DNA from: Promethearchaeota archaeon
GTDB taxonomy: Archaea > Asgardarchaeota > Lokiarchaeia > Sigyniarchaeales > SOKP01
Assembly: GCA_048938025.1 (NCBI GenBank)
Contig: JBHLMP010000061.1
Span: 1 to 18,878 of the forward strand
Length of the DNA stretch: 18,878 nucleotides
Reading direction: 5' to 3'
Shown here: in pieces, positions 1,524 through 11,824 of the stretch
How the letters are laid out: every line of letters begins with the position of its first letter
How positions within the stretch are numbered: position 1 is the first letter of the stretch
Notes under the pieces: generated by a model
The model's input: the letters and a program-made list of their open reading frames with translations, nothing else
What the model was told of the DNA's origin: nothing
Database searches by the model: none
Translations under genes and position numbers: made by a program

Positions 1524-3014
1524 TTAGTAATTAGGAATTCGTAGATTTTCGTTTAGTCTCGAAGTAATATGCTTTTTAGAGGCATTCTTTTTTGAACCTG
1601 CTACTTTTTGAAGTAACGACAAACCAGGTTTTACATTTTCTATTGGTTTTGATTCAATCAGATTATTGGCTATTAGGCTATCATATAATTTTTTACCTTT
1701 ATCTGTTCTTATTATTACAGTATTCCATCCTAATGGAGAACCTATAGATCCTATAGAAATATCAGCTGATTCAGAGGTTAAGTCATAACAAACTTCACAA
1801 TCTGGACGGGCTAAATGGGAAATTTCTTTAATGGGTATACTTAATTCTTCATTTGCAGTGTAGATAAAAAATTTGCCCTTGTTAATATTCATTTTTCTAA
1901 TATCTTTAATATTTACATTTAATAATTCACAGATCTTTAAGATTGATTCATAAGAAAAAGATTCCATGCAAAAAATCCCAATCCTATATTTAACATTATT
2001 TAAAGAAGGGATAGTTAGGTTAAAAATTTCTGATTTTAATAATGCTTGCATCATGCATGGTACTCCTACAATTGCTAATGATTTATTTTCCTTATTTAAT
2101 TGGCTTAGCAATCTTAATGTAGGATTATTAACATATTTCGTTCCTGTAGTTAATAGGATATCCTCTTTGTTTCTTAGTAATATCGGCTCAGGACGCCATA
2201 TTGTTTGACTCATTTTTGCTCCTAAAGCAAGATCAATCATTTTTTTATCAAATAGATAATGCAGAACTGTACTAGTAATTCCTCCATCTTGACATACTTT
2301 AGCAATTTCTTTAAGTTTTGACCTAGCAGAATATATCTCTTTATACGGACCAATATTGGTATAAACTTTAAATTCGGAGCAGTTATCTTGATACATATTT
2401 AGAACATTCACAGGTAAAAAAGATCTTGGGCAGACAGAATAACATAATCCACATCTAATGCATTTATCTTCTTCGATTTTACCGAACCCATTATAGATGT
2501 TAAGGCAATTTACAGGGCAGATTCCTGCACATAAACTACAACCAGAGCAAATTTTTGAATCAAATATTACCTTTACAGGTTCATAAATAGACTGGATATT
2601 TGAAACTTTATCCCGATTAATTTTTATCGATAAATCTTTAAAAATTAATTTCTCTTGAGAATTTTCATCTCCCTTAATTTTTTCATATATTTCTTCTATT
2701 ATGACTCTTTTTTCATTTTTTAGTAATTCTAATAAACTTAAAGCTTTTCTAAGTTCAATTGAGTTCTCTTCAGAAAAATTTTTAATTGAAGTTAAGTTTG
2801 AATTCTGATTAGAACTTAAAAAATAGAATAATGTAAATTTAGATTGTTCTATATTGAACATCTTAAATAGGATATTATAGTATTGAGTTTCATCATAAAC
2901 TTCTGCATTTAATATATCTTCTTTTGCGTCTATAAGAGCTCTAACCCTATATGAATCTAAACTATCTGCTACTGTTTTTAAAAACTCCCATGAAAATTTT
3001 CCTTCAGAACTCAT
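1524..3014 (-). CDS. Coenzyme F420 hydrogenase/dehydrogenase beta subunit (FrhB/FdhB family) with 2x[4Fe-4S] ferredoxin domain and ~145-aa N-terminal extra domain
   Basis: CSGCSLCAGIC and CIRCGLCYSVC ferredoxin motifs; FrhB motifs QDGGITS, GTKY, VGVPCM, IGIFCMESF, CEVCYDLTSESADISIGSIGSPLGWNTVIIRT. Confidence 0.9.
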   Translation of the reverse strand: MSSEGKFSWEFLKTVADSLDSYRVRALIDAKEDILNAEVYDETQYYNILFKMFNIEQSKFTLFYFLSSNQNSNLTSIKNFSEENSIELRKALSLLELLKNEKRVIIEEIYEKIKGDENSQEKLIFKDLSIKINRDKVSNIQSIYEPVKVIFDSKICSGCSLCAGICPVNCLNIYNGFGKIEEDKCIRCGLCYSVCPRSFLPVNVLNMYQDNCSEFKVYTNIGPYKEIYSARSKLKEIAKVCQDGGITSTVLHYLFDKKMIDLALGAKMSQTIWRPEPILLRNKEDILLTTGTKYVNNPTLRLLSQLNKENKSLAIVGVPCMMQALLKSEIFNLTIPSLNNVKYRIGIFCMESFSYESILKICELLNVNIKDIRKMNINKGKFFIYTANEELSIPIKEISHLARPDCEVCYDLTSESADISIGSIGSPLGWNTVIIRTDKGKKLYDSLIANNLIESKPIENVKPGLSLLQKVAGSKKNASKKHITSRLNENLRIPNY

Positions 3015-3056
3015 AATTGTTATTTTTTTATAAATAACTATTTAATTATATAAAAT

Positions 3057-3125
3057 CCGAAAACCCTTGCTATGGGATAGTTACCTCTCAACTATGATTT
3101 TTTTGAAAGGCTCATTCTATTTCGG
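3057..3125 (-). promoter_or_regulatory. Candidate SECIS (selenocysteine insertion) RNA element overlapping the mvhD stop codon
   Basis: Minus-strand RNA: AUAG(3120-3117)/CUAU(3080-3077) lower stem; AUGA (3115-3112) opposite AA; 9-bp stem GCCUUUCAA(3111-3103)/UUGAGAGGU(3091-3083); A-rich loop AAAAAUCAUAG; outer pair CCGAA(3125-3121)/UUCGG(3061-3057). It lies directly 3' of two UGA-containing genes. The 3' side has AA instead of the canonical GA. Folded by eye only. Confidence 0.5.
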
Positions 3126-3549
3126 GTAAAATTTTTTTAGGTAGAGGAGGCAAAACTTCAATTTTTTTAGTAATATCCTCAACAGAATGAATGAATTTTT
3201 CTACATCTGCTGCAGAGACGAAATACTGCTGGATGCGATCTTCAGAAATCCCAATATGTTTAAATAATTTTTTTAAAAAAAGCACATGTTCATATGTATT
3301 CATATTTCCTTTTCCAAACTCACATTCTCCTTCTTTTCATGAAATTATTGCTACACCATCTGCTCCGTTCAGGAAACTCTCCATTATTAAATGAATACCT
3401 ACTCTTCCTGTACATCTAACTCTAATCAAGTGAAATTCAGACGAGTATGATTTTCTCGTAGTTCCAGTTAAATCCGCAGCAGAATAACCTCATTTTTCGC
3501 ATCCAAAAGCAATTACTTTTTTAAAATTTTTGTTTTCTATTTGAATCAT
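3112..3549 (-). CDS. mvhD: MvhD/VhuD [2Fe-2S] hydrogenase iron-sulfur subunit, predicted selenoprotein with two Sec (U20, U71), 145 aa
   Basis: From ATG at 3549: MIQIENKNFKKVIAFGCEK-U-GYSAADLTGTTRKSYSSEFHLIRVRCTGRVGIHLIMESFLNGADGVAIIS-U-KEGECEFGKGNMNTYEH... The TGAs at 3492-3490 and 3339-3337 match the Cys of the MvhD motifs CxxC-Y-xAD and GADGVxxxGC-xxGDC. In frame with the 3112..3303 ORF; GAGGT SD-like sequence upstream. Confidence 0.92.
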
Positions 3550-5852: not shown

Positions 5853-6038
5853 ATGTCAGAGTCAGAAGAGAATAAGAGAGAGGAATTTGCTAAGCAATTT
5901 ATGCTTGAGGAAGGATTAAAGGGTAAAGCTAGGAGAATAAAAATTATGAAAATTATAGATAATGTAGGTTATGATAAAAAAAAGATAAAGACTGCTCTTC
6001 TTCGCTCAACAATAACTGAAAGAATTCAGCATGATTAA
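5853..6038 (+). CDS. Small hypothetical protein (61 aa)
   Basis: ATG start, TAA stop, charged helical composition, no overlap with other genes, upstream of serS; no family recognised. Confidence 0.65.
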   Translation: MSESEENKREEFAKQFMLEEGLKGKARRIKIMKIIDNVGYDKKKIKTALLRSTITERIQHD

Positions 6039-7446: not shown

Positions 7447-8679
7447 ATGATTGAAATATCTTTGGAAGAATTTGAAGATTTTTACAAAAAAAAGATTAAT
7501 TCTCAATTTTCAAAAATAAAGAGAGCAACCCAAAAATTAATAACTGACATTCGAGAAAACTTAATCGAAATTAAAGTCTGTATGGATCATTTTATAAAAT
7601 CTGGAGAAAGTAAAGTCGATGGAATAGCTCAAAAATCGTTACACTTCTTTTCTGACAAAATAAGAAAAGAGATTGATGAAATTGAAATTCCTGACGAAGA
7701 TATTTACTATGATAATGTAAATGATCTACTTAATTCTACAAAAAAGCTATTCCCCACTATAAATGAAATTGCTAGAAAGGCATTTCCAAAATTTCAGAAG
7801 GAAGTTCAAACTGAAATCAAAGAGCTCGATTATATTACCCGAAAATTGGGAAAAAAGCAAGGCATTCTTGATGAATTCTTAAGAAAAAAATATAGTGATG
7901 TAAGGGAAGCAGAAGAATTACTAAAAAAATTACCAAAATTGTTTTCTCTGAGAGATCATATTGAAAAAACTAGAATTGAATTGGATGAATTTGAAAATGA
8001 CCATGAAGAGAAAAAAGAGGTTCAAAAGAAATTAAATTCGGAATTAATTGAGCTTGAGAAAAATCAATTATTTAAAAATCTAGAAGATGAAGAGGACAAT
8101 TTATTCAAACTAAAGTTAAAGATTAATGATGTAATAGGATTCAAGAAAGCTCTAAAAAAATTAAAATTTGAATTAGAAAAGGGGACAATTAATGTTCCTA
8201 ATATCGATCTGAATTATCTCAAAGAATTTCTTAAAAATCCCATTAGAATGTTAAGTATTGAACGAAAAGACTTACCAAAATTTACAACTCTCATGGTACA
8301 ATTACGCCATTCATTAGAGGAGAATAAATTAAGCCTCAAATCAGAAACAAAAGAGAAAACAATTGAGCAAATAAATGCTATTTTTGATGAAAAAGAGTTA
8401 CAAGCAAATATTGAGACTTATCTACAAGTGAAAGAAAAAATAAAAGAGATTAAAAATAAAATTGAAGAAGCAGGTCTAGCTCAAAAACTAGATGACTTAA
8501 AAAATCAAATATCAATAATCAGCATTAAATTAGAGCATATCGAGAATGATAAGAACCGAAAAAATAAGGATTATACTAGATATCTTAGTAATTTAAAAGT
8601 TGAACGCGAAACTTTTCAAAATATGGCTGAAAATATATTAAACGAGCCTGTAAAAATTAGTATCACATTTTCATTTTAG
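7447..8679 (+). CDS. Hypothetical coiled-coil protein (410 aa)
   Basis: Long ORF 14 nt after serS, rich in E/K/L heptads; no catalytic or P-loop motif seen. Confidence 0.8.
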   Translation: MIEISLEEFEDFYKKKINSQFSKIKRATQKLITDIRENLIEIKVCMDHFIKSGESKVDGIAQKSLHFFSDKIRKEIDEIEIPDEDIYYDNVNDLLNSTKKLFPTINEIARKAFPKFQKEVQTEIKELDYITRKLGKKQGILDEFLRKKYSDVREAEELLKKLPKLFSLRDHIEKTRIELDEFENDHEEKKEVQKKLNSELIELEKNQLFKNLEDEEDNLFKLKLKINDVIGFKKALKKLKFELEKGTINVPNIDLNYLKEFLKNPIRMLSIERKDLPKFTTLMVQLRHSLEENKLSLKSETKEKTIEQINAIFDEKELQANIETYLQVKEKIKEIKNKIEEAGLAQKLDDLKNQISIISIKLEHIENDKNRKNKDYTRYLSNLKVERETFQNMAENILNEPVKISITFSF

Positions 8680-11578: not shown

Positions 11579-11824
11579 ATGGCAAAAAAGAAACCCGCAC
11601 CAGCCAAAGCGAAAAAGAAGGCTGAAGGATATATTGCTAAAGCACCTATTCGAAGATTAATGAAGAAAGAAGGCGCTGATCTAGTTGCTGCTGAAGCCTT
11701 AGATAAATTAATAGACTTTTTAGAGAAAAGCGCAGCAAATGCTACAAAAGAAGCACTCAAAGTCTGTAAAACCGACAAGCGCAAACGGATAACGGCTGCT
11801 GATGTAAGGAATGCAACAAGATAA
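11579..11824 (+). CDS. Archaeal histone (HMf-like fold) with Lys/Ala/Pro-rich N-terminal tail
   Basis: IAKAPIRRLMKKEGA (alpha1), VAAEALDKL...ANATKEALKVC (alpha2), KRKRITAADV (L2-alpha3, cf. RKTIxxxD); tail MAKKKPAPAKAKKKAEG. Confidence 0.93.
   Translation: MAKKKPAPAKAKKKAEGYIAKAPIRRLMKKEGADLVAAEALDKLIDFLEKSAANATKEALKVCKTDKRKRITAADVRNATR

Follow-up and report, generated by a model that had tools for sequence, protein, structure and literature searches.

Lokiarchaeal selenocysteine insertion sequences (lokiSECIS elements) are described by Mariotti et al. in 2016 (PMC4989117) as an AUGA motif, a 9-bp stem with an 11-nt apical loop (leading adenines and a final G), and then GA. According to the available text of that paper, AA follows the stem in VhuU, one element per HdrA-VhuD tandem serves both genes, a minimal distance between a UGA and the element is proposed, the AUGA of VhuU.1 doubles as the stop codon, and every HdrA terminates at UAA or UAG. 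The available text of Huang et al. in 2024 (PMC11227280) describes a type I eSECIS-like element, states that stop codon and core frequently overlap in Lokiarchaeia, gives AUGA_AA for hdrA/frhD, and refers to literature on kink-turns with an A.A pair. No SBP2 is reported in Asgard archaea in the available text of either paper. In the one functional test of a lokiSECIS that was found in the literature, a reporter carrying the vhuU.2 element gave 21.1 mU/mg in Methanococcus maripaludis, compared to 22.1 mU/mg without a SECIS, which is background (PMC11881835); the supplement of that paper lists the construct energy as -6.9 kcal/mol. A methanococcal SECIS is reported to be functional directly after the coding region (PMC9622424). 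A G2nA k-turn is reported to show no ion-driven folding as an isolated duplex but to fold inside a riboswitch (PMC5061560), so that tertiary or protein support is likely needed for an A.A core.

The hdrA-mvhD locus and its 3' element

The element examined here lies in a genome of 3.5 Mb (29% GC, 97% complete), in a window (the whole 18,878-nt stretch of DNA that was analyzed) where ORFs annotated as hdrA, mvhD (also vhuD or frhD), and an frhB-like gene follow one another on the minus strand (Table 1). The best NCBIfam match of hdrA was HdrA2 (E = 2.9e-244), under the cut-off of that model. In-frame UGAs stand at hdrA codons 17 (5520-5518) and 201 (4968-4966), in columns that hold Cys or UGA in nearly all paralog matches of the genome; at codon 201, two weak paralog matches have another residue. 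In mvhD, which begins 21 nt behind hdrA, in-frame UGAs stand at codons 20 (3492-3490) and 71 (3339-3337), and these columns contain Cys in 7 of 7 Cys-type paralog matches and stop codons in 3 of 3 other Sec-type ones. These four UGAs lie 2,406 to 225 nt upstream of the AUGA core of the element. Approximately 140 N-terminal residues without a Pfam match precede the 4Fe-4S and FrhB domains of the frhB-like gene. Elsewhere in the window, ORFs were found for a small GTPase (TIGR00231; 9501-10058, minus strand), an archaeal histone with an N-terminal tail rich in Lys, Ala, and Pro (11579-11824, plus strand), a 61-aa product with no NCBIfam match (5853-6038, plus strand), and a 410-aa product with a coiled-coil look (7447-8679, minus strand).

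The host machinery that accompanies a type I lokiSECIS was found in the genome. SecS, SelD (2 copies), and EFSec were all matched over their cut-offs, and matches under the cut-off were obtained for PSTK (E = 1.8e-40) and for a tRNA-Sec with a UCA anticodon and an insertion in the T arm (E = 5.7e-5), which is encoded beside secS. Archaeal ribosomal proteins and a histone were also matched and, together with the Sec machinery and the type of SECIS, suggest a Loki-type Asgard archaeon as host. The L7Ae family was represented by only two ORFs in the genome (125 and 133 aa).

A first-pass annotation of the sequence had described a SECIS-like hairpin with its core on the mvhD stop codon, and every piece of it was recovered at the positions given there: the AUGA core (3115-3112), whose UGA (3114-3112) occupies codon 146 of the mvhD frame, the 9-bp upper stem, the apical adenines, the closure of CCGAA with UUCGG, and AA in the 3' half of the core. 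The apical loop (3102-3092) begins with five adenines and ends in AG. The annotation did not include a side hairpin (3076-3064), which is located past the lower stem and before the 3' strand of the closing helix and turns the predicted fold into a three-way junction.

Table 1. Predicted features of the hdrA-mvhD locus and its 3' element
Feature	Positions	Strand	Remarks
hdrA, heterodisulfide reductase subunit A-like, 665 aa	3571..5568	-	stop codon UAA
mvhD/vhuD/frhD, 145 aa	3112..3549	-	Pfam FlpD PF02662, E = 1.7e-37
frhB-like gene, 4Fe-4S and FrhB domains, 496 aa, without in-frame UGA	1524..3014	-	42 nt past the element
Whole lokiSECIS element, type I, three-way junction fold	3057..3125	-	fold, alignment, and covariation
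Outer closing helix, 5' strand CCGAA (3125-3121)	3121..3125	-	pairs with UUCGG 3061-3057; within last mvhD codons
Kink-turn C-stem, 5' strand UAG	3117..3119	-	short; pairs with CUA 3080-3078
AAU 3-nt bulge and GA, forming AUGA core; UGA is in-frame stop	3112..3116	-	
Upper stem, 9 bp (3111-3103 with 3091-3083), and 11-nt apical loop (3102-3092)	3083..3111	-	
Core 3' half AA, replacing GA	3081..3082	-	A.A at kink-turn position 2b.2n
Side hairpin, 3 G-C pairs and 7-nt loop with conserved G-pyrimidine	3064..3076	-	

The folding energy of the element (-17.3 kcal/mol, z = -1.52) was matched by 18 of 200 shuffled sequences and is alone not significant. An Rfam scan returned no SECIS family at the element; five weak matches elsewhere in the window were each under the gathering score. 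A strict SECIS pattern matched nine times in the 3.5-Mb genome and not at all in each of five locally shuffled genomes, which puts it far above chance expectation. Seven of the nine matches lie at the 3' end of genes with an in-frame UGA; the other two are on contigs C72 and C82, and the one on C82 looks like chance. A better SECIS elsewhere in the transcript, named in the annotation as a refutation, was not found between 1400 and 5900, where the present element was the only credible candidate (-8.4 kcal/mol) and the next best folded at -2.1 kcal/mol. Methanococcal (euryarchaeal) SECIS elements have a GAA/A bulge clamped by G-C pairs and a short apical stem, and such a structure was not apparent in the single-sequence fold or in the RNAalifold consensus of the element. 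In the RNA data, two runs held 5 to 6% of the words, and contigs came from relatives only, with none over 3003-3406.

Among 124 mvhD-like loci, a search with the core pattern alone detected the element in 104 of 117 loci containing UGA and in none of 7 Cys-type loci, in a sample of partly related loci selected for their similarity to mvhD and partly for TGA content, with the 7 loci as the Cys control. The sample includes 58 TGA-containing paralog matches picked among the matches listed and is drawn from a larger set, with further matches (215 and 529 unlisted, plus other listed rows) outside it. Of the 13 misses, most visibly contain an element with a bulge or a loop of different length, one runs into the end of its contig, and nothing clear is seen in the remaining two. 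AA forms the 3' half of the core in 31 of 36 orthologs (loci with a called element and at least 64% identity) and in 33 of the 104 elements. In an alignment of 48 homologs, A-U-G-A and the last G of the loop were invariant.

The element shares its core, geometry, and gene position with the lokiSECIS elements of HdrA-VhuD tandems in the available texts of PMC4989117 and PMC11227280, which also describe a UGA stop on AUGA. AUGA stands directly before the stem, the 9-bp stem and 11-nt loop are present with five loop adenines and a final AG, AA follows the stem, and a single element lies at the 3' site of a tandem of genes with UGA at Cys positions. The suggestion of a eukaryote-like Lokiarchaeal SECIS is supported, and the element fits the published type I definition exactly. 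The annotation had called the AA and the short stem noncanonical; that label is not supported, since a 9-bp stem with an 11-nt loop is what defines a lokiSECIS and AA is published, also as an A.A kink-turn. In the available text of PMC4989117, overlap and AA are named for VhuU, and the present element has both at mvhD/vhuD.

Eukaryotic SECIS upper stems measure approximately 11 to 13 bp. With eukaryotic type I SECIS the element shares the AUGA/RA kink-turn core, apical adenines, the 3' position, and a minimal distance to the recoded UGA, but its upper stem is shorter (9 bp), one G.A is replaced by A.A, and its lower stem has 2 to 3 bp and opens into a junction. The eukaryotic combination of a GA/GA quartet and a longer upper stem was not found, the core being GA/AA. 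The element type, the overlap of stop codon and core, and the AA core are all already published and, because the overlap and the AA variant are in print, this locus is a further example and not a discovery. The aspect for which no published description was found is the third arm.

On these comparisons of sequence, the hairpin is predicted to be a true signal by which UGA is decoded as selenocysteine, of a kind published for Loki-type Asgard archaea. Its place between mvhD and frhB and the negative lokiSECIS reporter in the available text of PMC11881835, obtained in a foreign host, would also suit a terminator, processing, or stability element that is no SECIS. That reading is highly improbable, as the element follows UGA-containing genes regardless of their neighbors, was found behind none of the 7 Cys-type mvhD loci, and is fixed in core, apical adenines, and geometry. 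Very probably, then, an ordinary type I lokiSECIS serves as the single recoding signal of the hdrA-mvhD selenoprotein pair. The two genes and the element would be carried on one polycistronic mRNA, in which the element would fold as a kink-turn (3-nt bulge, G.A, and A.A) whose short C-stem opens into a three-way junction. Through a factor that may belong to the L7Ae/L30 family, the element would bring EFSec and Sec-tRNA to ribosomes at the upstream UGAs.

Stop codons on and near the core

Genes with the 104 elements ended in UAG (44), UAA (31), or UGA (29). Twenty-five of the UGA stops lie on the core and the other four lie 4, 18, 24, and 30 nt before it. Among the 36 orthologs, 27 end 5 nt upstream at the UAG that belongs to the C-stem, 4 end at UAA, and 5 end at the core UGA; the last are the window, genome G012, and three from a sister genus. 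The annotation had proposed that the overlap may explain why this UGA terminates. This explanation is not supported, because most orthologs use UAG or UAA a few bases upstream and UGA also serves as a stop off the core. The data do agree with the accompanying suggestion that the element is disabled when the ribosome arrives. A link between the overlap and the AA variant was considered as well and ruled out, as the overlap cases among the 104 elements comprise 22 with GA and 3 with AA.

The overlap recurs in other genes. The vhuU of the same genome ends on its own core, with a predicted Sec 84 nt upstream, the nearest recoded UGA that was measured. Of 14 genes in a stand-alone hdrA clade, 11 carry an in-frame UAA 15 nt ahead of the core; in the other 3, from the genome of the window (G000), G012, and G002, this UAA is lost and the gene ends on the core. 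In a paralogous mvhD clade (L036, L048 to L061, and L067), overlap is found in 16 of 16 members, all with a GA core, and an in-frame UAA three codons past the core, inside the upper stem, is possibly a back-up stop.

These patterns bear on whether the overlap is a selected device that guarantees termination or couples termination to unfolding of the SECIS, thereby tuning Sec insertion. Core codons account for 25 of the 29 UGA stops, only 4 of the 79 stops off the core are UGA compared to 179 of 1,317 long ORFs genome-wide, one clade keeps the overlap throughout, and vhuU and a stand-alone hdrA of the same genome show it too. Such counts of overlap and stop codons are not a test, because kin are not independent, and enrichment would be expected without selection, because an invariant AUGA by the end of a gene is often the first stop met after a change in the tail. 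In addition, 31 of the 36 orthologs are without the overlap, UGA stops occur off the core, and a ribosome at the UAG 5 nt earlier would presumably unfold the element equally. A selected device is accordingly considered unlikely.

Partial decoding of the terminal UGA as Sec, by the SECIS of the same or another transcript, would add a 13-residue extension with two further Sec, and the frame past the core is indeed open, through a second UGA (3090-3088), until UAG (3072-3070). Very little credence is given to this reading. The extension is not conserved, since most orthologs stop earlier and the read-through length in overlap cases varies from 3 to >20 codons, and the bases covary as RNA pairs.

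The data are instead consistent with the recoding element having a dead zone around it, in which a UGA within approximately 30 nt likely terminates and one at a distance of at least 84 nt is recoded. A ribosome within approximately 30 nt of the core would open the 5' half of the element or sit on it, and for this reason a UGA in the zone, core included, would be read as a stop. The core UGA would then be a free and safe stop, which is why genes would drift onto it repeatedly, by frameshifts in the tail or by loss of an upstream UAA or UAG. In the window, a small indel in the A-rich tail of mvhD may have shifted the stop from the UAG 5 nt upstream onto the core. The overlap is probably no dedicated termination device, and its distribution suggests that it arises repeatedly by drift; selection may hold it in the 16-member paralogous clade. 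The comparison puts numbers on the minimal-distance idea of 2016, with UGA stops at 0 to 30 nt from the core and recoding at distances of at least 84 nt.

The stand-alone Sec-hdrA of the genome (C87:40150-42201, plus strand; L130), which is not accompanied by mvhD, is 74% identical to the hdrA of the window. Its last residues resemble those of the mvhD tail, its stop codon is the core UGA of a near-twin element (94% identity over 80 nt, compared to 77% for coding DNA), and it looks like an hdrA-mvhD pair that has lost mvhD. This gene is an exception to the remark of 2016 on HdrA stop codons yet fits the distance rule. Gene conversion of the SECIS cassette between the two loci would provide another route to the overlap at mvhD. 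Within G000 and G012 the two elements differ at 10 to 11 of 86 nt, compared to 15 to 29 in 11 other genomes, despite similar coding identity of hdrA, and the word TTACCC is exclusive to the four elements of G000 and G012. On the other side, ortholog L148 is nearly as close (12 to 13 differences), the tree is compatible with separate clades (p-AU = 0.43), and a 1-nt slip in the A run relative to L148 also yields the overlap.

The third arm and the putative kink-turn core

Comparative evidence for structure was obtained from the 104 elements and from a MAFFT alignment of the 48 close homologs. In the alignment, 95% of cells were paired and 10 of 21 pairs showed change on both sides: 3 of 6 in the outer helix, 1 in the C-stem, 5 of 9 in the upper stem, and 1 of 3 in the side hairpin. 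The covariation check that the annotation had recommended for the 3' regions of mvhD orthologs thus came out in favor of a conserved structure. The covariation score was reached by 0 of 500 shuffles, a control that ignores relatedness. The outer helix was paired in 95% of cells and the side hairpin in 100%, with its one both-sided change seen in 8 of the 48 sequences. RNAalifold, run without a supplied structure, predicted the outer helix, the upper stem, and the side hairpin, and did not predict the C-stem.

The C-stem was no part of the search pattern. Its first to fourth pairs, of several types, are formed in 104, 93, 57, and 30 of the 104 elements; the 4-bp lower stem of the annotation is thus present in the window and is conserved as 2 to 3 bp only. 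In this register 254 of 312 cells are paired, compared to 49, 161, and 52 when the strands are slid. The side hairpin was more stable than shuffled sequences in all 104 elements (-5.0 versus -2.2 kcal/mol), as was the outer duplex in 98 of 104. Constrained folding formed both arms in 90 of 104, and G-pyrimidine occurred in the side loop in 90 of 104. Flanks paired better with their cognate strand than with strands swapped between clades, which were named by their 5' word, a choice that favors this outcome. Inspection of the loops led to rejection of a self-complementary kissing loop in the side hairpin, most of them not being palindromic.

The order of C-stem, AAU bulge, G.A, A.A, and NC stem places the core in the register of a putative kink-turn, with a G-C pair at -1b.-1n in 84 of 104 elements. 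A 3-nt bulge, G.A at 1b.1n, and A.A at 2b.2n are common to the core and to Kt-23 of Thelohania solenopsae, which has A at 2n (available texts of PMC3985660 and PMC5061560), the register in the window being drawn from the sequence only. Three helices surround kink-turn nucleotides in the k-junction of Wang et al. in 2014 (PMC4005666) as they do here; in the k-junction, as described in the available text, the third helix is built into the strand across from the bulge, whereas the side hairpin of the window starts 4 nt past the core. Because a C-stem of 2 to 3 bp separates the core from the side hairpin, the structure possibly consists of a k-turn with a distinct junction beside it.

The outer helix and side hairpin do not appear in the available texts of PMC4989117 and PMC11227280, whose figures or supplements could show them, and a SECIS three-way junction was not found in the available literature on Asgard SECIS, including PMC9723677 and PMC9499178. 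Tentatively, and with rather below even confidence, the functional lokiSECIS is proposed to be the three-armed domain and not the published hairpin. The kink-turn would swing the 9-bp arm against the side hairpin, whose G-pyrimidine loop would dock on the arm or bind the missing archaeal SECIS factor. If true, this would account for the constancy of the 9-bp/11-nt geometry, for the lack of SBP2, and for the acceptance of an A.A pair, which weakens kink-turns in isolation, and it might explain part of the negative reporter test in M. maripaludis. The bare upper stem-loop of the vhuU element of the genome folds at -6.7 kcal/mol and its whole junction at -23.5 kcal/mol; judged from the listed energy alone, the negative reporter construct appears to resemble the bare hairpin. 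If the side hairpin is required, Asgard SECIS search models and the constructs for reporters and pull-downs have been too short so far, and the hunt for an archaeal SECIS-binding factor, which bears on the origin of the eukaryotic system, should use the whole 69-nt domain. The main value of the locus lies in this junction; the features first flagged matter little, being published.

In elements from other families of the phylum (L163 to L174), stems of 10 bp and longer side hairpins with a common loop word were observed, and some of these elements seem to be without the outer helix. The side hairpin may thus predate the complete junction.

Additional elements and a candidate tandem-Sec family

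At a few loci the stem of the element resembled that of another gene. The upper stems of L155 (genome G146), which has a long branch in the tree, and of the element at C15:31269 resemble that of another paralog or gene family; L085, the ortholog of the C15 element, has a stem like that of the prxL element at C76. These likenesses hint at exchange of SECIS elements between loci. Two further SECIS-like elements were found in the genome, at C72:82301 (plus strand; L137) and C66:23674 (plus strand; L138). Frame P0003 was considered as the gene for the C72 element and rejected, as it was found only in G012 and contains TAA; it is probably the wrong frame or start.

Another ORF, at C77:4915-4358 (minus strand; L136 and L175; protein P0002), contains two adjacent in-frame UGAs followed by a conserved tail of approximately 38 residues. 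A lokiSECIS lies at C77:4352, approximately 130 nt downstream. Homologs were found in 34 of 41 genomes; the UGA-UGA pair was present in 25 of 25 loci fetched, and the element was called in 23 of these. P0002 had no Pfam or NCBIfam match, is not among the seven families in the available text of PMC11227280, and was not recognizable in that of the 2026 catalog PMC13188914. It is a candidate tandem-Sec selenoprotein family. Upstream of P0002 on C77 are ORFs for a ferredoxin with a Cys-rich C terminus and for a small protein with a CACEW motif, and a metal or metalloid handling cluster is plausible there.
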